64,000 bases of DNA. Origin: Candidatus Omnitrophota bacterium (GTDB lineage: Bacteria; Omnitrophota; Gorgyraeia; Zapsychrales; JAHFFX01). Shown piece by piece: positions 4,125-60,239 of this stretch (position 1 is the first letter of the stretch; every line of letters starts with the position of its first letter). Position numbers and translations under genes: made by a program. The DNA lies in the NCBI GenBank assembly GCA_023247725.1, contig JAHFFW010000014.1:783-64782 (forward strand), in the 5' to 3' direction. The notes beneath the pieces were generated by a model. That model was not told the origin of the DNA. It searched no databases and worked only from the letters and a program-made list of their open reading frames with translations.

Positions 4125-5870
4125 ATGAACAGAGATATTTATCTCACAAGCTTCCTCGAACACACGCCCCGTTTGCTCGGTCAAATGAACGCCAATCCTG
4201 CCTCGCGGACTTATGGCTGCTGTGATCGCGCCTTCTGGCATAACGCCATCACGGTTTTTCCCAACGCCCGCTATCAAGAAGCGGCGCTGACGTTGAGTTT
4301 ATTGTTTTTGGAATTCGACACTCCCTATCGGGCAAGCCCTATCCTTCTTGAACTCATCGAGCGCACGATCGCCTTTTGGTGCAAGATTCAGGAAAAAGAC
4401 GGCTCGTTCAATGAATGGTATTTAAGAGAAGGGAGTTATGTGGCCACAGCCTTCAGTTCCTATTCCATCTCGGAAAGCCTGTTATTGCTAGGTAAGGAAC
4501 GGTTGAAGATTTTCCCGACGGCAGTGGAGGCCTTGCGCAAGGCCGGGCTGTGGCTCAAAGATCGTTCCCAAACCACCGTCAGCAATCAGCAAACCGGGGC
4601 TCTGGTCGCCTTGCAGAATATTTATTTGCTGACGGGTGAAACGGTTTTCTTGGAAGCCGCCCGGCAGTATGAAGGTCTTCTGGCTCGATCACAGGATGAG
4701 GAAGGATGGTTTAAGGAATACGCTGGCATGGATCTTGGTTATCTTTCGTTGGCCATCGACTATCTGGCCAAATATTATTCCAAAACAAACTCCTCCCGGA
4801 TCGCCATGGTCATCCATAAGGCCATTGATTTTTTGCATCATTTTGTCCTCGAAGATGGAACCGTCAGCGGGGTTGTCACCAGCCGCGAAACCGAATATTT
4901 GATCCCTCACGGTTTTGAGCTCTGGTCGGAAAAGCACGCTCCAGCGCGTTTTATCGCCGGAAGGATCCGCGAAAATCTCAAAACCAAAAAAGGCGTTTCG
5001 TTGCATTCTCTGGATGATCGATACCTCATGTATGTCGGCTATACGTATTTGCAAGCCGGGAAGGATGGGCCGGATGAACTGCCCGTCTTGCCGCGTCCGG
5101 CTATTCCATTCCAGTATCTTCCTCATGCGGGCCTGTGTGTATACCGCGCAGAAGATCTAGAATTGATCGGCAGCCTAAAAAAAACCGGGAGTTTTGTTTG
5201 CCGCGTGGGTTCAAAACGATGCGAGGATAGCGGTGTGGTGATTGATCCCTCGACTCGTACCCCGGCCATGGCCGGGGGTCCTTCGCTCGGGATGGAACCC
5301 AATAATAAGAAATCACGCGAGCAAATCCCCAAAGGGCAAGAAGAAGGTACCGCGCCCGCCTGCCGGCGAGGCAGGGGCATGCCCGTGGGGTTCCATGCCC
5401 AGAAAAAATTCTTTAGCGGATTTATGAATGAAGAGGTTCAAGTCCTTCGCATCGATGAGAAGGGTTTTGAAGTGGAAGGGAATTTTTACCAGATCAACGA
5501 AAACATCATGACTCCATTCAAAAACCTGCTGCTCAATTTATTTCAAATGACGCTCGGTCGTTTTCCCTGGCTGAACCAAACGGTTAAAGATTTTTTGCGC
5601 AAGAAGCTGATTCTGACGCAGAAGAAGAGTGCATTCAAACTCAAGCGGCGCGTGGATGTGAATTCTTCGGGGATCGCGATGACCGATGAAATCATCGGTC
5701 CCGAGTTTTCGGAGATTATTCTCGGAGCGAAGGTTTCCTTTATTTATGTCCCCTCGTCCCGCTGGTTCCAAATCGAAAATCTGGACAATCAGCCATTCCA
5801 ACGAATTCCCGTCGCAGGTGCCCATCGGTCAGCCCAAAATACATTCGTCTTCACCCGGCATTTTCCCTAA
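4125..5870 (+). CDS. hypothetical protein (possibly a heparinase II/III-like alpha/alpha-toroid fold) carrying an in-frame 150-nt repeat insertion
   Basis: Long ORF with a good start context, sitting inside the glycan cluster. The segment 5247-5396 is a palindromic repeat also present at 35049 and 59978, and it is read through in frame (DPSTRTPAMAGGPSLGMEPNNKKSREQIPKGQEEGTAPACRRGRGMPVGFH). The fold guess is weak. Confidence 0.45.
   Translation: MNRDIYLTSFLEHTPRLLGQMNANPASRTYGCCDRAFWHNAITVFPNARYQEAALTLSLLFLEFDTPYRASPILLELIERTIAFWCKIQEKDGSFNEWYLREGSYVATAFSSYSISESLLLLGKERLKIFPTAVEALRKAGLWLKDRSQTTVSNQQTGALVALQNIYLLTGETVFLEAARQYEGLLARSQDEEGWFKEYAGMDLGYLSLAIDYLAKYYSKTNSSRIAMVIHKAIDFLHHFVLEDGTVSGVVTSRETEYLIPHGFELWSEKHAPARFIAGRIRENLKTKKGVSLHSLDDRYLMYVGYTYLQAGKDGPDELPVLPRPAIPFQYLPHAGLCVYRAEDLELIGSLKKTGSFVCRVGSKRCEDSGVVIDPSTRTPAMAGGPSLGMEPNNKKSREQIPKGQEEGTAPACRRGRGMPVGFHAQKKFFSGFMNEEVQVLRIDEKGFEVEGNFYQINENIMTPFKNLLLNLFQMTLGRFPWLNQTVKDFLRKKLILTQKKSAFKLKRRVDVNSSGIAMTDEIIGPEFSEIILGAKVSFIYVPSSRWFQIENLDNQPFQRIPVAGAHRSAQNTFVFTRHFP
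5247..5396 (+). repeat. structured palindromic repeat family A, copy 1 (150 nt, inside a CDS, in frame)
   Basis: Contains the perfect palindromes cccggccatggccggg and ccacgggcatgcccgtgg plus the hairpin cctgccggcgaggcagg. Copy 2 at 35049-35198 is near-identical. Copy 3 is inverted at 59978-60105. Confidence 0.8.
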
Positions 5871-25379: not shown

Positions 25380-27389
25380 TTGCACAAAGGGATCATTCTC
25401 TTAACCTTGGCCGTTTTGGGTAGCGTGGTTTTTAGTAATACCCTTCATCACCGATTTATCATTGACGATGCCTATCTTTTATTTCATGAGCCCGCGCTTG
25501 CATCGACGAAATTCGCCTTCTATCAGCTGATTCCCCAATACAAATCAGTTTTCGCTATGGACGACCAGGAGCCGGAGGTTTTTTATCGTCCGGGCGCAAA
25601 GTTGTTTCCCATGTTTTGTCACCAATTGTTTGACGAACATCCCGCACCGTATCATATCCTGAATATTTTGCTTTGGGTCACCGCCGCGTGGCTCGTGTAT
25701 CTTTGGGTCCGATTACTTTTTCCTGAAAGGGTGGCGGGCGTCGCGAGCCTGCTCTTGTTGATCCATCCGATCAACGGGATCGTGGTGAATTACAAATCCG
25801 CCGCCGTGTATTCGCTGGTTTTGATTTTTCTCAATGGCTCGATCCTGACTTATCTGCGCTGGCAAAAGGAAAGCCGCGGGAAGATATTTTGGCTGGCCGC
25901 GAGTCTGTTGTTATTTGCCATCGCCCCATTTTTCCATGAAATGGCCCTGTCCTTGCCGCTTTTTCTTTTTCTCATCGAGCGGGTTCGTCAATCCTCTCCG
26001 ATTCTGACCTCTTTGGGGAATCTGCGTTATCACGGTTTTTTATTTCTCCTCTTTTTGATTTTGCATCCCACGATGGGACACCTCTATTCGGCATTTGCTT
26101 CCGGAATAAGTCCTGGATCTGGTTTGATTTCTCTTTTTGCTCAAGGGCCGGCGATTCTTTGGTATCTAAAGAAGTTGGTAATACCGACGGGAATTGTCTT
26201 TCTCTGGAGCCTGCCGGTTCATCTGGCTTCGGCCGCCTGGGCGTGGGTGGCATTCGGACTTTTATGGTTGAGTTGGGTTGTGGCCTCGCGCTCTCGCGGG
26301 TGGGGAAGGGAATTGAATTTTTCCATTCTGTGGCTGCTGGTCGGTTTTTTGCCGACGTTCATCGCCAAGGGTTTGCATGACCCTAAGCGTATGGTTTTCG
26401 AACCTCACTGGATGATGGTCTCTTCCATTGGATTTTTCTTATTCATTGCGTTACTGTTGGAACGTTTATGGCAGAGAAATTTGCAGAGGGCGGCTTTTTC
26501 CATCACGATCGTTCTCATGGCGGCCTGGGGTTGGGAATCTTTTGAGATGAACAAGCTCTGGTCGAGCCAAACGGTTTATTGCCAATACTGGCTCAACCAG
26601 ACTCCGGATAATCCTTCCCTATATATGTTGCTCGCCAGCGGATATCAAGGGGAAAAAGAGTATGAAAAAGCAAGGATGTATTATCGAAAGTGTTTGAAGC
26701 TGGGGGTAGAACCAGCCAAGGCATATGACGATCTGGGGATCATGGCCTTGGATGAAAGAAAATATAAGGAAGCGGAGGATTATTTTCAATTGGCGTTGGC
26801 AGTGAATCCGAAACAGTCGATATTCTGGAACAATTTAGGGTCGGTGTATTTGGAGACAAGGCGTTTTGAGGAAGCGAAGACGGCCTTTGAGCGGGCGATT
26901 GAGTTAAATCCCTTGTATTATCTTCCCCGGGCGAATCTGGGGCAGGTGTATCATCAGGAAGGAAAACTCCCAGAAGCTTTAACTTTTTATGACGAGTATC
27001 TGGAGATCACTCCTCGAGATCAGCATATTGTGTTGTTGGCGATGACGGCGGCATTGAAATTGCAGGAGGCGACCCAAGTCAAGAAGCTGGTCCTTCACGC
27101 CAGACGCTGGGTGGATGATCCCGATGGACTGGCGCAGCTGGGGAGTGTGTTGGCTTCGCACGCAGACCCTCCGGATGCCTTTGCTCTTTACGAGAAGGCC
27201 TTAAAGCTTAACCCTAAATTTATTCCGGCCTATGTGGAAATGGGAAAGCTGCTGGCGAATAACGGCGATCTGGATGGGGCCTTGCGGGTCTGGCGTGTGG
27301 CGGAGCGCAATGCGGTCAATAACGAAGAATTGGTTCATCTGATTCAGCAAGCGACCCAATTAAGAGAAGAGTTCCATGCGAATCCCTAA
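25380..27389 (+). CDS. polytopic membrane protein with C-terminal TPR repeats (PMT_2/ArnT-like N-domain?)
   Basis: About 11 TM helices followed by TPR repeats. Putative TTG start. Paralog of the next gene. Confidence 0.6.
   Translation: MHKGIILLTLAVLGSVVFSNTLHHRFIIDDAYLLFHEPALASTKFAFYQLIPQYKSVFAMDDQEPEVFYRPGAKLFPMFCHQLFDEHPAPYHILNILLWVTAAWLVYLWVRLLFPERVAGVASLLLLIHPINGIVVNYKSAAVYSLVLIFLNGSILTYLRWQKESRGKIFWLAASLLLFAIAPFFHEMALSLPLFLFLIERVRQSSPILTSLGNLRYHGFLFLLFLILHPTMGHLYSAFASGISPGSGLISLFAQGPAILWYLKKLVIPTGIVFLWSLPVHLASAAWAWVAFGLLWLSWVVASRSRGWGRELNFSILWLLVGFLPTFIAKGLHDPKRMVFEPHWMMVSSIGFFLFIALLLERLWQRNLQRAAFSITIVLMAAWGWESFEMNKLWSSQTVYCQYWLNQTPDNPSLYMLLASGYQGEKEYEKARMYYRKCLKLGVEPAKAYDDLGIMALDERKYKEAEDYFQLALAVNPKQSIFWNNLGSVYLETRRFEEAKTAFERAIELNPLYYLPRANLGQVYHQEGKLPEALTFYDEYLEITPRDQHIVLLAMTAALKLQEATQVKKLVLHARRWVDDPDGLAQLGSVLASHADPPDAFALYEKALKLNPKFIPAYVEMGKLLANNGDLDGALRVWRVAERNAVNNEELVHLIQQATQLREEFHANP
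26731..27052 (+). repeat. 322-bp block 100% identical to 28751-29072 (intra-paralog gene conversion/duplication)
   Basis: Direct nucleotide comparison of the two TPR regions. Divergence resumes on both sides of the block. Confidence 0.85.
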
Positions 27390-29400
27390 AGAAGAAAATT
27401 TCCGCACATGGAAGGTGCTTTTGATCCTGGGGCTTTTTGGAGTATGTGTTTTTGCCAATACCCTCAATCACCGGTTTAATATCGACGAGTATAATTTTTT
27501 TTTCCAGGATTCGTCATTTCAATCCCCCAAATTTTCTCTTTATCAATGGATCCCCAATTTCCGACAAGTCTACAGACTGGATGAACAAAGACCAGAACTG
27601 TATTATCGTCCGCTCAACCACACCTTGATGATGGCGAGCAAATGGATATTCCAAGACAATACTCGCTTGTATCAGGTATCGAGTATCTTTTTTTGGGTGG
27701 CCGCGGCCGGGATGGTTTATTCTTTATTGAGCGGATGGACTAAAAAAAGGGTGGCTTTTGGGGCGAGCCTTTTTTTTCTGGTTCATCCGATGAATGGTCT
27801 GATGTTGAACAATAAGACCTGCTTTGTTTACTCGGTCATGCTGATCTTTATGTGTGCATCGGCGATCCTGCAAAGGCGCTGGCAAGAGCAAAAAAACATG
27901 GGCTGGCTCGCTGCCAGTCTATTTCTTTATCTTTTGGCCAGCCTGATCCATGAGATGGGACTTTTACTGCCGATCTATCTTATCTTTGTTGAACGCTACG
28001 TCCGCGACTCTTCCTGGCGAAAGTCTTTTTGGGAGATCCGTTATCACGGATTGATCTTCTTCGTGTTTTTCTTATGGCATTTGAGTTTCACCCAGATGAA
28101 AACCGTGGTCTTTGCCAACTGGGGTGGGCCGGGGCTGGCGATCGCCAATGGGATTTTTGCGAGCGCACAAGCCGTGGCCTTGTATGTGGAAAAATTGCTC
28201 GTTCCCATCGGTATTGTGATCAACTGGACCAGAGACGTCACGATGGGGGCTGCCCTTTTGGCCTGGTTGATCGTCGCCGCGGGAGTCGGGGCTTTGATTA
28301 TTCTTCGACGCAAAATTCGTTGGGAAAGAGAAATCCGCCTGTCCTTGGCCTGGCTCGTGACTGGATTCTTCGTCATCATGGTCACGAGCGTCCTTTCCGG
28401 TCACGGACGGATTGTGGTCGAGCCGCACTGGATGCTTTTTCCCTCCCTTGGTTTTTTTCTGCTCGTGGCGCTCGTGATCGACCGAGGGTGGCAGAGCCAC
28501 TTTAAGAAGGCGGTCGTTTTGATTTGTACTGGCTTGTTGCTTTTTTGGAGCGGATTGTCCTTTGTCGCTAATTCCTTCTGGGCTAATCAAAGGATCTTTG
28601 CCGCGTATTGGCTGACCTATTCTCCCCATAATTCTTATTTGTATTTTTTGTTAGCCAGCGGCTATCAGGAAGAGGGGGATTACGCTCGAGCCGAAATTTT
28701 TTATAAGAAGTGTTTAGCGTTGGGGGTCGTTCCGGCGAAGGCGTACGACAATCTGGGGATCATGGCCTTGGATGAAAGAAAATATAAGGAAGCGGAGGAT
28801 TATTTTCAATTGGCGTTGGCAGTGAATCCGAAACAGTCGATATTCTGGAACAATTTAGGGTCGGTGTATTTGGAGACAAGGCGTTTTGAGGAAGCGAAGA
28901 CGGCCTTTGAGCGGGCGATTGAGTTAAATCCCTTGTATTATCTTCCCCGGGCGAATCTGGGGCAGGTGTATCATCAGGAAGGAAAACTCCCAGAAGCTTT
29001 AACTTTTTATGACGAGTATCTGGAGATCACTCCTCGAGATCAGCATATTGTGTTGTTGGCGATGACGGCGGCGTTAGAGAGCAAGGATGGCCAACAAGTC
29101 GAAAAATTTTTTAATCAAGCGAGACAATGGATTGATGATCCGGCGGCATTAACCCAGATAGGGAGTTTATTAGCATCAAAAGGGGATTTTCCCCAGGCCT
29201 TCGCCTTGTATGAGAAAGCCTTACGGCGTAATCCACAGTTTATTCCGGCCTATGTGGAGATGGGCAAGCTCTTGGCTAACCAGGGAGATCTCGACGGGGC
29301 AAGGAGAGTTTGGAGCGCGGCACTTCCCTATAGCAACGACCAAGGGGAATTACTGGATTTGCTGAGAAGGTCTGAGAGAGACAACTATCCTGCTTCGTAA
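27376..29400 (+). CDS. polytopic membrane protein with C-terminal TPR repeats (tandem paralog)
   Basis: Same architecture as the previous gene. Shares 107 identical residues and 322 identical nt with it. Confidence 0.6.
   Translation: MRIPKEENFRTWKVLLILGLFGVCVFANTLNHRFNIDEYNFFFQDSSFQSPKFSLYQWIPNFRQVYRLDEQRPELYYRPLNHTLMMASKWIFQDNTRLYQVSSIFFWVAAAGMVYSLLSGWTKKRVAFGASLFFLVHPMNGLMLNNKTCFVYSVMLIFMCASAILQRRWQEQKNMGWLAASLFLYLLASLIHEMGLLLPIYLIFVERYVRDSSWRKSFWEIRYHGLIFFVFFLWHLSFTQMKTVVFANWGGPGLAIANGIFASAQAVALYVEKLLVPIGIVINWTRDVTMGAALLAWLIVAAGVGALIILRRKIRWEREIRLSLAWLVTGFFVIMVTSVLSGHGRIVVEPHWMLFPSLGFFLLVALVIDRGWQSHFKKAVVLICTGLLLFWSGLSFVANSFWANQRIFAAYWLTYSPHNSYLYFLLASGYQEEGDYARAEIFYKKCLALGVVPAKAYDNLGIMALDERKYKEAEDYFQLALAVNPKQSIFWNNLGSVYLETRRFEEAKTAFERAIELNPLYYLPRANLGQVYHQEGKLPEALTFYDEYLEITPRDQHIVLLAMTAALESKDGQQVEKFFNQARQWIDDPAALTQIGSLLASKGDFPQAFALYEKALRRNPQFIPAYVEMGKLLANQGDLDGARRVWSAALPYSNDQGELLDLLRRSERDNYPAS
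28751..29072 (+). repeat. 322-bp block identical to 26731-27052
   Basis: See the partner copy. Confidence 0.85.
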
Positions 29401-29509: not shown

Positions 29510-29770
29510 GTCGCTTTGTCTATCCTTTTTTAAGAATACCCCAGACGCAACTATTAAGAAATCTTAATCTGTTTTTAACCTCATTCTAAGGAAAGGTGCG
29601 TTATAAGAGAGAGGTTTTTCATTCCCTCAATTCTTAGAATTCTTTTCATGATAAAACAATTGAAGCCTTCCGATGAGCGTGGCGGCCTAACCCTCGGGAA
29701 GTTCTCTAAAAAAGGTTTTCCTCTCCGTCTTATTTTTCAATCTTTAATCCTTTAATTGTGGAGAAAACGC

Positions 29771-32700
29771 ATGAATCCGGTAACCTTTGTTGATGGCAAT
29801 GGGAAGAATGTGCAAACTTTACCCTCCGAAACACCGCCGGCTCCAGAACGAGTGCCGCTTAAGAAAGATCAATTACGGCAGATCCTCCAGGTCGCCAAGG
29901 CCATCCGGCAGGGAAATTTTTCCGCGCGCTTTCCCGTGGAAGAAGAGGGGATCGCGAGCGAAATCAGCGATGTCCTAAACGACATCCTGGAACTGAACGA
30001 AAATATGATCAAGGAATTCGCTCGGGTTTCGGTCATCGTCGGTCAGGAAGGCAGGCTCCCGGAACGCGCCTCCATTGGCCCGGTCAAAGGCGCCTGGGCG
30101 ACGGGTATGGAAGCCATCAATTCCCTTATCACCAATCTTGTTCAGCCGACGAACGAATTCGCCCGCGTCATCACCTCGGTCGCCAGAGGTGACTTGTCCG
30201 AGAAAATGCCTTTGGAAATCAATGGCCGGCTGCTCAAAGGCGAATATCTGCGCATCGCCACCATTGTCAATTCCATGTTTGACCAGCTGGGATTTTTCTC
30301 GTCGGAAGTTTCCCGTGTGGCCAAGGAAGTCGGTCTGGAAGGAAAATTGGGTGGTCAGGCCGATGTCAAGGGGGTCACGGGTGTCTGGAAGGATTTGACG
30401 GACAACGTTAACCAACTCGCCGGAAACCTCACGAACCAGGTTCGCAACATCGCCAAGGTTACGACCGCGGTTGCCAAAGGTGACTTGTCGCAGAAGATCA
30501 CCGTCGACGCAAAAGGTGAAATCTCCGAACTTAAAAATACCATCAACACCATGGTGGATCAGCTGAACTCCTTCGCGGCAGAAGTCACCCGTGTGGCCAA
30601 GGAAGTCGGTACAGAAGGAAAGCTCGGTGGTCAAGCGGACGTCAAGGGTGTTTCGGGGACGTGGAAAGATTTGACGGACAACGTCAACGTCTTGGCCGGA
30701 AACCTCACGAAACAAGTTCGTGGTATTGTCAAGGTCGTTACCGCGGTCGCCAATGGTGACCTACACCAGAAATTCGTTTTGGAAGCCAAAGGCGAGGTCG
30801 CTGCCCTTGCCGAAACGATCAATAACATGATTGATACCTTGAGTACCTTTGCCGATCAGGTCACCACCGTCGCAAGGGAAGTCGGTATCGAAGGTCAGCT
30901 CGGTGGTCAGGCAAAAGTTCCTGGTGCCTCCGGTGTGTGGAAGGACTTGACCGACAACGTCAACGTTATGGCGAGCAATCTCACCAAACAAGTCCGCGGC
31001 ATCGTCAAGGTCGTTACCGCGGTCGCCAATGGTGACCTGAGCGAAAAATTCGTTTTGGAAGCCAAAGGCGAGGTCGCCGCCCTCGCCGAAACGATTAACA
31101 GTATGACCGATACGCTGAGAACTTTCGCCGATCAGGTCACCACGGTCGCCCGCGAAGTCGGTATCGAAGGAAAACTCGGAGGTCAGGCCAAGGTTCCCGG
31201 GGCCTCCGGTATTTGGAAAGATTTGACGGACAACGTCAACCAGCTCGCTGGAAACTTGACCTCGCAGGTTCGCGCCATCGCCGAGGTTTCGACCGCCGTT
31301 ACCAAAGGTGACCTCACGCGTTCCATCACCGTTCAGGCGCAAGGAGAAGTCGCGGCCTTGAAAGACAACATCAATCAGATGATCGCGAATCTTAAGGACA
31401 CGACGCAGAAAAATATGGAACAGGACTGGTTGAAAACGAACCTCGCTCGCTTCTCCAGTATGATGCAGGGGCAAAGGAATCTGACCGCCGTCGCTCAGCT
31501 CATCATGTCAGAACTGACGCCTTTGCTCGACGCGCAGCACGGAACATTCTTCGTCGCAGCCCAAGAAGAAGGGGAAGTCACCTTGAATTTGATTGCCAGC
31601 TACGCCTTTACCGAGCGCAAGCATTTGTCCAACCGTTACCGTTTAAAGGAAAGCCTCGTCGGACAATGCGCCTTTGAGAAGAAGCGCATTTTGATTACGG
31701 AAACGCCGGGCGATTATATTTCCATCACCTCAGGTTTGGGTGAGTCGAAGCCCAAAAATATTCTTCTTCTGCCGGTTGTTTTCGAAGGGGATTTAAAGGC
31801 CGTCATCGAGCTCGCTTCGTTCAAACCGTTTAGCGCCAACTACCTGAACTTCCTTGACCAGCTCATGGACAGCGTCGGCGTTATCCTCAACATGATTTCC
31901 TCGACCATGAGAACCGAGGAACTTCTGCAAGAGGTCAAGCGTTCCAACGCCGAGCTCGAAGCCCAGGCCAAGGAACTCGAAGAGAAGGCCAAACTCCTCG
32001 AGTTGAAAAACAAGGAAGTTGAAATGGCCAGTTTGTCTTTGGAAGAGAAGGCTGAGCAGCTTTCCCTCATTTCTAAATACAAATCGGAATTTTTGGCCAA
32101 TATGTCGCACGAACTGCGCACCCCCTTAAACAGTTTGCTCATCCTTTCAAAAACACTGGCGGAAAATAAAGAAGATAACCTCAATCCCGAACAGGTCAAA
32201 TATGCCGCCACCGTTCACTCGACGGGCCAGGACCTTTTGACCCTCATCAATGAAATCCTCGATCTATCCAAGGTTGAAGCCGGAAAGATGTCCATCGAGC
32301 CGCAAGAAATCAAATTGCCGCAGATCTATGAATACCTGGAGCAGAATTTTCGGCCCCTGGCGGAACACAAGAATCTGGAATTTAAGATTAGCGAGGATCA
32401 GAATCTGCCCGATACCATTTTTACCGACAACAGCCGCTTGCAGCAGATCCTTAAGAATCTGTTGTCCAACGCCATTAAATTCACCGAAAAAGGAAGGGTT
32501 GTCCTGCAAATCAAGCTCGCCGAGAAGGGAAAAAAATTCGGCATCGAAAATCTGGACAAGAGCCCGAATGTGTTTGCCTTTTCCATCACCGATACCGGCA
32601 TCGGTATTCCTAAGGAAAAGCAAAAAATTATTTTCGAAGCCTTCCAGCAGGCAGATGGCACGACCAGCCGCAAGTATGGCGGAACGGGCCTGGGTCTGAC

Positions 32701-33259
32701 CATCAGCCGGGAAATCACACGTCTGTTGGGCGGTATGATTGAGGTGGACAGCATTCCGGAACAAGGCAGTACCTTTACGCTTTATTTGCCGGAGCGATAT
32801 ATGGGTGCGGAGGCGATCAAGGAAAAAGTTGAGTTTGAAACCATCATTCCCCCCTTACCCGATGACGCTGATTTCAAAGGCAAGAAGATCCTGATTGTCG
32901 ACGACGATCGGCGCAACCTCTACGCCTTGACCAGCATCCTGTCGCCAAAGGGGATGAATGTTTTTCACGCCGAGAATGGCAAGATCGGAATCCGGCGCTT
33001 GCTGGAACATCCCGATGTGGATCTGGTCTTGATGGATATCATGATGCCAGAGATGAATGGATTCGATGCCATCAAGGCCATCCGCAAGATGCCAAAATTT
33101 ATCTCGCTGCCGATTCTTTCCTTAACGGCCAAGGCGATGAAGGGAGACCGGGAGCAGTGCCTGGCCGCGGGGGCCTCCGATTATATTACGAAGCCAGTTG
33201 ATTCGGACCGGTTGCTGGCCTTGATTTACGCCTGGTTAAACAAATACAGCCTCAAATAA
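29771..33259 (+). CDS. hybrid sensor histidine kinase with tandem poly-HAMP array, GAF-like domain, HisKA, HATPase_c and C-terminal receiver
   Basis: At least five consecutive ~92-aa HAMP-like units ([14 protein letters not shown]..[11 protein letters not shown]...AVAKGDL), the H-box [10 protein letters not shown], the G-box GGTGLGL, and a receiver domain with DDDRRN...[14 protein letters not shown] at 29756 is an alternative start. Confidence 0.85.
30040..31440 (+). repeat. tandem ~276-nt coding repeats (HAMP units), about 85% nt identity between some units
   Basis: For example, 30860-31000 versus 31136-31276 are near-identical. Confidence 0.7.
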
Positions 33260-33682: not shown

Positions 33683-34200
33683 ATTCCCCGCAGCTTGCTG
33701 CGTACGAAGATGGTATATTGTGTGAGTGAGCAAGTACATCCATAAGAGTCATAATGTATCGGTGTTGATCTACCATGTGGTGTGTCCGGCGAAGTATCGA
33801 AGAGTAGTGTTTAGCAAAGGAGTGGATGAGAAGATCAAAGAAGTGTGCCTGGAGATTAGCAAGAGGTATGAAGTTATCTTTTTGGAAATAGGAGTGGATA
33901 AGGATCATGTACATTTTCTGATACAGTCTGTGCCGATGTATAGTCCGAAGAAGATTGTTCAAATGATAAAGAGTATAACAGCCAGAGAGATATTTAGGAT
34001 GTGTCCAGAAGTCAAAAAGCAGCTGTGGGGAGGAGAATTTTGGACAGACGGGTATTTTGTGAATACGGTAGGTCAGCATGGGAACGAGTCTACGGTTCAA
34101 AAGTATATTCAGGAGCAAGGGAAAGAGAAAGAATATCAAAAAATATATCAACAACATTAACGCTTTTCTAATACCCCGTCAGCTTGCTGCGGGGTAGTTT
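33683..34200 (+). mobile_element. IS200/IS605-family insertion sequence (tnpA only) with subterminal hairpins
   Basis: Left hairpin ccccgcagcttgctgcg at about 33686 and right hairpin ccccgtcagcttgctgcgggg at about 34176 flank a Y1 transposase gene. Confidence 0.8.
33726..34160 (+). CDS. tnpA: IS200/IS605 family transposase TnpA (HUH Y1 transposase)
   Basis: HUH motif DHVHFLI, the catalytic Tyr region WTDGYFVNTVG, and the N-terminal YHVVCPAKYRR. GTG start. Confidence 0.9.
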   Translation: MSKYIHKSHNVSVLIYHVVCPAKYRRVVFSKGVDEKIKEVCLEISKRYEVIFLEIGVDKDHVHFLIQSVPMYSPKKIVQMIKSITAREIFRMCPEVKKQLWGGEFWTDGYFVNTVGQHGNESTVQKYIQEQGKEKEYQKIYQQH

Positions 34201-34266
34201 ATTTTAATCGGTTACCTGCATAATAATAAAACAAAAGCTGAGATTTCATCAGGATCGGAGAGATTT

Positions 34267-34959: not shown

Positions 34960-35048
34960 TGAACATCAAACAATGCCTCGGGAATGATTTTAGCAAATAC
35001 CGAATTTTTGCCCTGACCAATAACGAACAAGGACAGGTGAATGTCGAT

Positions 35049-35198
35049 CCCTCGACTCGTACCTCGGCCATGGCCGGGGGCCCTTCGCTCGGGATGGAAC
35101 CCAATCATAAGAAATCACGCGAGCAAATCCCCAAAGGGCAAGAAGAAGGTACCACGCCCGCCTGCCGACGAGGCAGGGGCATGCCCGTGGGGTTCCAT
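35049..35198 (+). repeat. structured palindromic repeat family A, copy 2
   Basis: Near-identical to 5247-5396. Lies immediately downstream of the PRTase gene. The overlapping ORF 34956-35399 is probably an artifact of the repeat being open in one frame. Confidence 0.8.
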
Positions 35199-35199
35199 T

Positions 35200-35430
35200 A
35201 TGTTAAGGAAGTCTATTTTCTCGACAAGGATAGCCGACGAAAAAGGGGAGCTTTTGCACGCCGAGGTCGAATCCGTTCGAGAATTGGAAATCCTGGATGG
35301 GATTGCCCCCATCGAGCCGAATCTGGAGATTGCTTCGACCAAACGCAAATTGACCCTGAGGGTATCTGCCATCGAGGAAATCGCTTCTTGTATCCATAAA
35401 GTTTTGGAGACTGCCAATGGCTCGCATTGA
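35200..35430 (+). CDS. hypothetical small protein (76 aa) starting at the 3' edge of repeat copy 2
   Basis: After the repeat, the ORF 35041-35430 frame looks protein-like (MLRKSIFSTRIADEKGELLHAEVESVRELEILDG...). No RBS recognized, because the repeat occupies that position. Confidence 0.3.
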   Translation: MLRKSIFSTRIADEKGELLHAEVESVRELEILDGIAPIEPNLEIASTKRKLTLRVSAIEEIASCIHKVLETANGSH

Positions 35431-41582: not shown

Positions 41583-41660
41583 ATAATTCCCCGCAGCTTG
41601 CTGCGCTTCCTTTTGGCAGTTTGCTGTGGATACCCCGTCAGCTTGCTGCGGGGTGGTTCA
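41583..41660 (+). mobile_element. tnpA-less IS200/IS605 derivative (PATE-like): left and right hairpins of the element at 33683-34200 joined by 26 nt
   Basis: aattccccgcagcttgctgcg ... ataccccgtcagcttgctgcggggt matches the LE and RE hairpins of the intact copy almost exactly. Confidence 0.65.
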
Positions 41661-41703
41661 TTCAGCAAGCCCCTATATTAGCTCGCCACAAAAGGAGGGC
41701 ACC

Positions 41704-53986: not shown

Positions 53987-54226
53987 AGACGTAGGAAGTA
54001 GGACGTCCACTCCTCGCTGAGGCGCAGCGTCGTTTGGACGTGGGACGTCTGCGACCGCCGTCCCTCAGCTTTAACTAAGGACTGCGGTCGCTCGGACGTA
54101 GGACGTAAATCAGGATTGGTATTCAAAATTTCGTAATTAATATAATAATCAAAATCAATCGTCCCACGTCCTTCGTCCTAGCGAGCTACGCCAAAGGCAG
54201 GCGAGCGGACGTCCAACGTCCCACGT
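53987..54226. repeat. array of GGACGT-type heptad motifs in both orientations with nested dyads (intergenic gspE-gspF)
   Basis: taggacgtcc, tggacgtgggacgtc, cggacgtaggacgt, cgtcccacgtcc and cggacgtccaacgtcccacgt, read directly. Confidence 0.6.
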
Positions 54227-54246
54227 AACCTGAGCTTTATTCCAAC

Positions 54247-56739: not shown

Positions 56740-56743
56740 TGGT

Positions 56744-56900
56744 TACGTGGGACGAAGGACGTTCGCTCGCCCCACCGACGGCGGGACTCGCTCGGACGAG
56801 GGACGTTAGAATCAATGACGCGCGACGATTCACGCTTCACAAAGGACGCTTCACGTCTTAGCACCTCGTATCTCGTGAAGCGCATCTCGTCTGACCGGTG
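56744..56900. repeat. second GGACG-motif array plus direct/inverted cgcttcacg repeats (intergenic, upstream of gspK-like)
   Basis: acgtgggacgaaggacgtt, cggacgagggacgtt, and cgcttcacg/cgtgaagcg. Confidence 0.55.
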
Positions 56901-59977: not shown

Positions 59978-60105
59978 ATGGAACCCCACGGGCATGCCCG
60001 TGGTACCTTCTTCTTACCCTTGGGGGATTTGCTCGCGTGATTTCTTATGATTGGGTTCCATCCCGAGCGAAGGAACCCGGCCATGGCCGAGGTACGAGTC
60101 GAGGG
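59978..60105 (-). repeat. structured palindromic repeat family A, copy 3 (inverted, 128 nt, lacks the cctgccggcgaggcagg hairpin)
   Basis: Its reverse complement aligns with copies 1 and 2 and retains the ccggccatggccgg and ccacgggcatgcccgtgg palindromes. Confidence 0.75.
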
Positions 60106-60239
60106 GTAGTTTCAGCGCAAAATTTTTTGGAATTCCAGAATTCCTGTTGACAACTATCAGGCTAAGAGGTTAAATAAGTCACCTTTTAACTCGACGGTAA
60201 CCTCCATAACCTGGGCAACCTTGATAACCTATTCCACCC

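Follow-up and report, generated by a model that had tools for sequence, protein, structure and literature searches.

A 150-nt palindromic repeat inserted in frame in genes of an Omnitrophota bacterium, a candidate non-autonomous derivative of the IS200/IS605 family

Insertion sequences (IS) of the IS200/IS605 family, such as IS608 of Helicobacter pylori and ISDra2 of Deinococcus radiodurans, insert 3' of a specific sequence of four or five nucleotides, which stays at the left flank, and carry subterminal hairpins preceded by short guides. In IS608 a 4-nt guide lies 5' of each hairpin foot and pairs with the cleavage site by a fixed rule, G1 with C(-3), G2 with C(-4), G3 with C(-2) and G4 with C(-1) (PMC5934647); the target of ISDra2 is TTGAT|G (PMC2806898; PMC5934647). 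Palindrome-associated transposable elements (PATEs), known from Haloquadratum walsbyi and, as PATE-like derivatives, from Geobacillus stearothermophilus, have neither terminal inverted repeats (TIR) nor target-site duplications (TSD) (PMC3119063; PMC10055086) but possess mutually similar palindromes near both termini, the 5' distance being the longer one (PMC3119063), a targeting sequence of 4–5 nt at the 5' flank, no room for a transposase gene, and homogeneous copies with more than 90% identity. Here we describe a repeat of about 150 nt that shares these traits, with the targeting sequence present at the left flank of four of its five known copies. It occurs in a 64-kb stretch of contig JAHFFW010000014.1 of Candidatus Omnitrophota bacterium (the whole stretch analysed, 64,000 nt, is referred to as the window), where one copy lies in frame within the gene of a 581-aa protein. 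We propose, with a probability of roughly 0.6, that the repeat is a non-autonomous IS200/IS605-family derivative, that is, a PATE.

Three copies of the element were located in the window, at the positions where a first-pass annotation made from the sequence alone had placed them:

5247-5396, forward strand: copy 1, 150 nt, long form, in frame within the 581-aa coding sequence
35049-35198, forward strand: copy 2, 150 nt, long form, after ATG TCG AT| of a small open reading frame (ORF)
59978-60105, reverse strand: copy 3, 128 nt, short form, intergenic, in opposite orientation

The copies are 95–97% identical to each other (97% between copies 1 and 2) and have a GC content of 63–64%. Copy 3, which lies 12 nt past the stop codon of a PilO-like ORF, differs from the long form by the absence of a nested 21-nt hairpin and of one G. 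A 15-mer from the core occurs three times in the window compared to 0.29 expected occurrences, and 20–22-mers from the ends of the element are found nowhere in the window outside the three copies, with 0 expected by shuffling. The first-pass annotation had described the element as novel and as built from perfect palindromes. The palindromes are present, but ccacggGCATGCccgtgg is perfect in the short copy 3 only, its 5' arm being interrupted by the 21-nt hairpin in copies 1 and 2, and the novelty applies to the sequence family but not to the kind of element.

The host gene of copy 1 shows how the element entered coding sequence:

4125-5870, forward strand: host coding sequence of copy 1 (P0001), 581 aa; homologues have 529-556 aa

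Copy 1 is exactly 150 nt long and the host ORF is read through it without a stop codon, as had been noted at first sight. The corresponding segment is absent, exactly, from 13 of 13 aligned homologues (40–54% identity), some of which have a precomputed PF25840 or PF09492 match; a Pfam scan of the 581-aa protein itself gave no match. Because all 13 homologues lack the 50 residues, copy 1 is a clean in-frame insertion, which agrees with the earlier suggestion that the residues are tolerated as an insertion. The alignment rules out a native domain or a paralogue fragment, and copies 2 and 3 are likewise not pieces of paralogous genes, as copy 3 is intergenic and copy 2 occupies the 5' part of a small ORF that has no relation to the 581-aa gene; the two alternatives under which the insertion would have been only apparent are thereby set aside. 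Excising exactly 5247-5396 yields DSG-VVIDAQKKFF-SGF, with 10 residues between DSG and SG[FY] as in most aligned homologues (e.g., ILVDAPQPLY), and the excised protein regains an acidic residue at the position of insertion, as in the homologues. No duplicated residues are seen in the alignment around this position. Since removal of 150 nt restores both the loop length and the acidic residue, the GAT shared by the left junctions is host target sequence rather than part of the element. In an AlphaFold2 model of the 581-aa protein (predicted template modelling score, pTM, 0.85), the insert residues 378–425 have a predicted local confidence (pLDDT) below 50 and no secondary structure, and are located between beta strands; the insert is thus predicted to form an unstructured, low-confidence loop in an otherwise confident model.

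With the boundaries set by this excision, the parts of the element can be assigned as follows, with positions referring to copy 1 unless stated otherwise:

5242-5246, forward strand: left flank TTGAT, host sequence, presumed target and left cleavage site C_L, from the excision of copy 1 against the homologues
5256-5259, forward strand: presumed left guide G_L, CGTA, directly 5' of the left hairpin, by the IS608 rule
5260-5277, forward strand: left subterminal palindrome IP_L, CCCCGGCC AT GGCCGGGG, from folding as single-stranded DNA (ssDNA)
5346-5349, forward strand: presumed right guide G_R, GGTA, directly 5' of the right hairpin, the IS608-rule complement of CCAT
5350-5388, forward strand: right subterminal palindrome IP_R, CCGC...GGGCATGCCCGTGG, from the ssDNA fold
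5354-5374, forward strand: 21-nt hairpin nested in IP_R, long form only
5393-5396, forward strand: right terminus and presumed right cleavage site C_R, CCAT, 4 nt past the hairpin
35044-35048, forward strand: left flank of copy 2, TCGAT, host side
60106-60110, reverse strand: left flank of copy 3, ACTAC, host side

The order is thus target, 9 nt, CGTA, the 18-nt IP_L, a core of ~68 nt, GGTA, IP_R, GGTT and CCAT. IP_L occupies element positions 14–31, leaving 13 nt on its 5' side, and 8 nt separate the end of IP_R from the 3' terminus; in the short form of copy 3, IP_R is a perfect 18-nt palindrome, CCACGGGC AT GCCCGTGG. Both subterminal hairpins fold as ssDNA, and the two stem substitutions found among the copies are wobble-compatible. 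The left and right hairpins are in direct orientation, and the two modules consisting of guide and hairpin are identical at 17 of 20 positions when the right module is taken from copy 3.

One link to the IS200/IS605 family is the complementarity between guides and cleavage sites. Under the IS608 rule, the left site CGAT calls for the guide CGTA and the right site CCAT for GGTA, and each guide occupies exactly the four nucleotides directly 5' of the foot of its hairpin. CGTA is the only 4-mer that fully pairs with CGAT under this rule; it is not found elsewhere in copy 2, and GGTA is not found elsewhere in copies 1 and 2. The left site of copy 1, TGAT, pairs with CGTA via one G.T. The two guides differ at G1 (C on the left, G on the right), which is matched by a difference between the cleavage sites at -3 (G and C). 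In L001, a distant metagenomic relative described below, the right guide and cleavage site are GGTG and CCAC, a compensatory change of A-T to G-C. Allowing ±1 nt at each hairpin foot, the chance of a guide/cleavage match at both ends is about 1e-4. It is a worked example of an unannotated element both of whose ends follow from the IS608 rule. Like ISDra2 and IS608, it has subterminal hairpins with 5' guides that pair by this rule, at distances of similar scale, and in four of five copies it lies 3' of a short sequence kept at the left flank; the reconstructed empty site of copy 1, TTGAT|G, is the preferred ISDra2 target. ISDra2 and IS608 are 1.3–1.8 kb long and carry tnpA and tnpB, whereas the element has 150 nt and no gene, being too short to encode a transposase. 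The pairing of IS608 guides includes a non-canonical A.A, whereas all four guide positions of the element are Watson-Crick pairs.

Across the five known sites, conservation of the flanks appears confined to the left side. The left flank reads T-Y-G-A-T/Y in four of five copies, namely TTGAT in copy 1, TCGAT in copy 2, and F-D (TTY GAY) in two proteins encoded elsewhere (P0121 and P0122, see below), and the right flanks of copies 1 to 3 are unrelated. We considered the bottom strand as the active strand and rejected it, because GGGC, CATA and AAAA, its flanks, show no conservation. Terminal inverted repeats are absent: when the first 40 nt are aligned to the reverse-complemented last 40 nt, the local score is 8 compared to a mean of 7.4 for shuffled sequences, and 4 of 20 positions are identical in the anchored termini. 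No direct repeat longer than 1 nt is shared by the two flanks of copy 1, 2 or 3, and so there is no target-site duplication. The absence of both features had been correctly recognised in the first-pass annotation. A classical miniature inverted-repeat transposable element (MITE) moved by a DDE transposase was rejected, since TIR and TSD were looked for and neither is present. We likewise rejected an integron attC site, a template or variable repeat of a diversity-generating retroelement and a clustered regularly interspaced short palindromic repeat (CRISPR), because the copies lie in unrelated genes and the differences between them are not adenine-specific.

The mechanism that we propose is as follows. 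A TnpA transposase of the Y1 HUH type, whose gene would lie elsewhere in the genome, would bind both hairpins on single-stranded DNA; recognition of the cleavage sites would depend on base pairing with the 4-nt guides beside the hairpins and not on the protein. The top strand would be excised as a circle, with a predicted junction of right and left end (RE-LE) of ...GGTTCCAT|CCCTCGAC..., also given as GGGGTTCCAT|CCCTCGACTCG, and would be pasted 3' of T-Y-G-A-T on ssDNA, the likeliest being the lagging-strand template. Pasting of a single strand would leave no target duplication. With genes co-oriented with replication, insertions would tend to fall in sense orientation, and those in surface loops or at termini would leave a working protein with a disordered extra of ~50 residues and may hence persist. 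Such a route would offer a testable mechanism by which a palindromic repeat free of TIR and TSD enters genes without destroying them. For the IS200/IS605 family, the active strand is expected on the lagging-strand template (PMC5027513). In the window, 56 of 63 non-overlapping ORFs are on the forward strand and the cumulative GC skew rises monotonically, which makes the forward strand the probable lagging-strand template. The top strand of copies 1 and 2 would then be on the lagging-strand template and that of copy 3 on the opposite strand, although three copies have no statistical power.

Several observations weigh against an IS200/IS605-type origin. Neither a tnpA (Y1) nor a tnpB gene is present in the 64-kb window or in the L001 contig, and for this reason we can only infer mobilisation in trans by TnpA. 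The target logo comprises five sites, two of which are derived from protein sequences, with three copies available as DNA. The ACTAC flank of copy 3 has two mismatches to the guide, and the left guides of L001 and of a second relative, L002 (CGGC and CGGA), do not fit the flank CGAC. The boundary of the element has a 2-nt (AT) ambiguity in copies 1 and 2, and the 21-nt hairpin nested in IP_R of the long form might impair recognition by TnpA. The element may be currently active, yet among four assemblies (see below) no empty-site polymorphism was found and all copies are fixed, so recent mobility is unsupported.

Some of these points would suit a different route altogether: an RPE-like element (RPE, Rickettsia palindromic element), propagated through recombination or gene conversion, or else a MITE moved by a DDE or serine transposase, with the IS200/IS605-like features being coincidental. 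RPEs are likewise ~150 bp long and are translated as additional stretches of protein, and the in-frame insertion of palindromic repeats of this size in unrelated genes is their hallmark (PMC10969869). The left ends of copy 3, L001 and L002, which disobey the guide rule, and the lack of a partner enzyme in the window or L001 would also be compatible with this explanation. We nevertheless consider it unlikely, since a guide/cleavage match at both ends combined with conservation of the left flank only would rarely arise by chance, no other mechanism predicts the guide match and the asymmetry of the flanks, and the features of a classical MITE are lacking. The likeness to RPEs is one of outcome only; the element belongs to another lineage, few copies of it are known, and its ends provide a specific mechanistic hypothesis. 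We know of no mobilising enzyme for RPEs.

Additional copies were found in proteins. A six-frame concatenated peptide query against 5.8 billion proteins returned only two more carriers, both of which contain the element in the same frame as the 581-aa protein, (F)DPSTRT...MPVGFH. P0121 is a PIF1-like helicase of 570 aa, known only from an NCBI record, with the long form located after the helicase core; no representative aligns to its C-terminal region. P0122 is an SH3_3 protein of 304 aa with a short form of 43 residues, and it comes from the same European Nucleotide Archive (ENA) sample as the window (ERZ27297570). The five known copies are therefore copies 1 to 3, P0121 and P0122, the last two being read from protein only, and they are located on three contigs of 65–75 kb. 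This count is a lower bound, because the six-frame query missed the 581-aa protein itself and a profile query found one further candidate. The latter, P0123, is an 85-aa ORF on a 754-bp contig of ENA ERZ27297570. It carries a divergent version of the element in which core and right end (LGMEP...GTTGMPVGFH) are retained but the 5' part (NPEACTTPPQLGGVGA) is another one, pointing to a sister subfamily whose left end differs.

The simplest reading of copy 2 is that it was inserted after ATG TCG AT| of a putative gene:

35041-35430, forward strand: small ORF, 129 aa, reading through copy 2 in the second open frame of the element

An alternative start codon, ATG at 35200, lies just beyond copy 2, and the 76 residues downstream of the copy have a protein-like look but no Pfam match. 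It had been noted that the frame used in copy 1 is open in copy 2 as well; it is indeed open, but the plausible host protein uses the other open frame. At least three, and probably four, of the five known copies are thus in coding sequence. The lengths of the element (150 nt, 129 nt for the short form and 105 nt for L001) are all multiples of three, two of its sense frames are free of stop codons, and one and the same frame is read in three proteins (P0001, P0121 and P0122). The number of open frames is unremarkable compared to dinucleotide shuffles (P = 0.06 and 0.34), and we therefore rejected a special adaptation to be free of stops in favour of survivorship: copies in frame survive because the length is a multiple of three and the GC-rich sequence contains no stop codons. 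The sequence is a new family, and what stands out most is that it colonises genes in frame. Compared to PATEs, the host is an uncultivated bacterium instead of a haloarchaeon or Geobacillus, no described PATE or IS was seen to share sequence similarity with the element, no cognate IS was identified in the window or L001, and the cited passages on PATEs do not mention copies in several genes that are read through in frame.

The use of one frame in three proteins could also be taken as a sign that the element is not selfish DNA but has a function as a structured RNA or as a peptide module, be it a native domain, a small RNA gene or a regulatory element. In addition, there is a long-range complement between GGGATGGAACCC and the 3' GGGGTTCCAT, as well as a terminator-like score for the right hairpin of copy 3 with its T-run. 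We regard such a function as very improbable. Homologues exist without the segment, the encoded peptide is predicted to be disordered, the three hosts, namely a PF25840-family protein, a PIF1-like helicase and an SH3 protein, have no relation to one another, and the number of open frames is ordinary by the comparison with shuffles given above. Moreover, Rfam gave no match, be it a tRNA or another family, at the gathering score in the entire 64-kb window, and none to the element at E<=10, and whole-element folds as RNA or DNA are no more stable than those of shuffled sequences (z = -0.6 to -0.9). The earlier characterisation of the element as small-RNA-like, which had called for fold prediction, is consequently not borne out. 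Some PATEs carry omega-RNA, the guide RNA of TnpB (PMC10055086). No omega-RNA family of Rfam resembles the element at the gathering score or at E<=10. With folds that are not significant and an empty Rfam result, an RNA role has the standing of a possibility, one form of it being that the core and right end might encode an omega-RNA scaffold used in trans by TnpB.

Repetitive extragenic palindromic sequences (REPs) and the bacterial interspersed mosaic elements (BIMEs) formed from them are processed as ssDNA by Y1 HUH enzymes related to TnpA of IS200/IS605; REPs are 30–40 nt long, extragenic, arranged as pairs in inverse orientation, cleaved at C|T, and in E. coli preceded by a GTAG head (PMC3333891). 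The first-pass annotation considered the element closer to REP/BIME than to a classical MITE. This holds for the lack of TIR and TSD and for the enzyme class, to which the analogy points correctly because the enzymes are related, but the architecture is that of a PATE and not of a REP. One may ask whether the element is a REP/BIME- or REPIN-type repeat kept by a domesticated REP-associated tyrosine transposase (RAYT, TnpA_REP) in place of an IS200/IS605 transposase. The enzyme class would be the same, as would the recognition logic, in which a conserved tetranucleotide lies 5' of the hairpin foot; (C/G)GTA before both hairpins is similar to the GTAG head known from REPs of E. coli (PMC3333891), and no transposase was seen in the window or L001. 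This explanation appears quite improbable to us, because the hairpins of the element are in direct and not inverse orientation and enclose a unique core of ~68 nt, most known copies are in coding sequence while REPs are short and extragenic, one flank is conserved, and the left and right cleavage sites end in AT instead of CT.

Relatives of the element occur in metagenomes. A scan of metagenomes for the peptide pattern gave, among the matches listed, at least two distant relatives, L001 and L002, on metagenomic contigs of 57–60% GC, and there are probably more of this type in metagenomes. What the two have in common with the element is a left module of ~47 nt. L001 has 105 nt (4942-5046 of a contig with 60% GC), with 43 of 47 positions identical at the left end and 22 of 30 at the right end, and is in frame in a PolX-like ORF, directly ahead of its HHH_8 domain. 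L002 is intergenic, starts at about 2894, and is identical to the left end at 40 of 47 positions; its contig also holds a GTCCTGAGCGAGCAAAGCGACTCGAAGGGCGAG-type segment, which we take to resemble a repeat common in environmental genomes. Other searches were negative: exact 21-mers of the element had 0 matches in genome, metagenome and viral contigs, a degenerate left-end pattern had 0 matches in viral contigs, peptide-pattern scans had 0 matches in viral contigs and 0 in representative genomes, and blastn of the element against plasmids and phages gave only 32-nt matches at chance level. The left-end identity of 43 of 47 positions spans the source genome with 50% GC and the L001 contig with 60% GC. 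A widespread, hitherto undescribed superfamily of PATEs, with ends conserved across very different bacteria and stop-free copies of a length divisible by three colonising coding sequences, is a doubtful but conceivable extension; if the family were widespread, it would link PATEs with RPE-style protein evolution driven by repeats.

The insertions are also present in assemblies from other samples. The junctions of all three copies are reproduced in ENA ERZ27279563 (L003, L005 and L007), where L007 contains the junctions of copy 1, L003 the insertion of copy 2 and L005 that of copy 3, and Logan contigs from SRR14366766 and SRR14366760 (L004, L006, L008 and L009) cover the same loci. Because the junctions recur in independent assemblies, the insertion is real and fixed in the population rather than an assembly artefact. 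The four Logan contigs break inside the element at copies 1 and 3, L004, L006 and L008 at their 3' ends and L009 at its 5' start, with L004 and L006 breaking within copy 3. Such repeat-induced breaks constitute indirect evidence for many genomic copies. For annotation purposes, insertions of this kind inflate proteins with spurious "low-complexity" segments in addition to breaking assemblies. A separate observation concerns L003, in which positions 989-1138 differ from copy 2 by two single-nucleotide polymorphisms (SNPs) inside the 150-nt element, one of them disrupting a left-hairpin pair, compared to none in 371 flanking bases; the SNPs could stem from mixing of reads between copies, gene conversion, or relaxed constraint.

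The window contains several other repeats. A second family, with GGACGTNGGACGT-type units at 53990-54225 and 56745-56810, has 8 matches compared to 0.17 expected; it is restricted to two intergenic regions, one on each side of T2SS-F and pilin-like genes, and a 31-nt inverted pair (54200-54230 and 56741-56771) is part of it. The hairpin-containing 33-nt direct repeat ATACCCCGTCAGCTTGCTGCGGGGTAGTTTATT is found at 34171-34203 and 41630-41662 with 94% identity, in both cases at a gene boundary (one copy is intergenic and the other is located at the start of the ORF from 41626), and could represent a terminator or a small element of the REP type. Within the ORF at 29756-33259 (1167 aa), four tandem repeats of 276 nt with 63–71% identity (30267-31370) encode protein repeats of 92 residues. 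Finally, a 300-nt direct repeat with 78% identity (26557-26856 and 28577-28876) is shared between adjacent ORFs of 669 and 674 aa, which are probably tandem paralogues.

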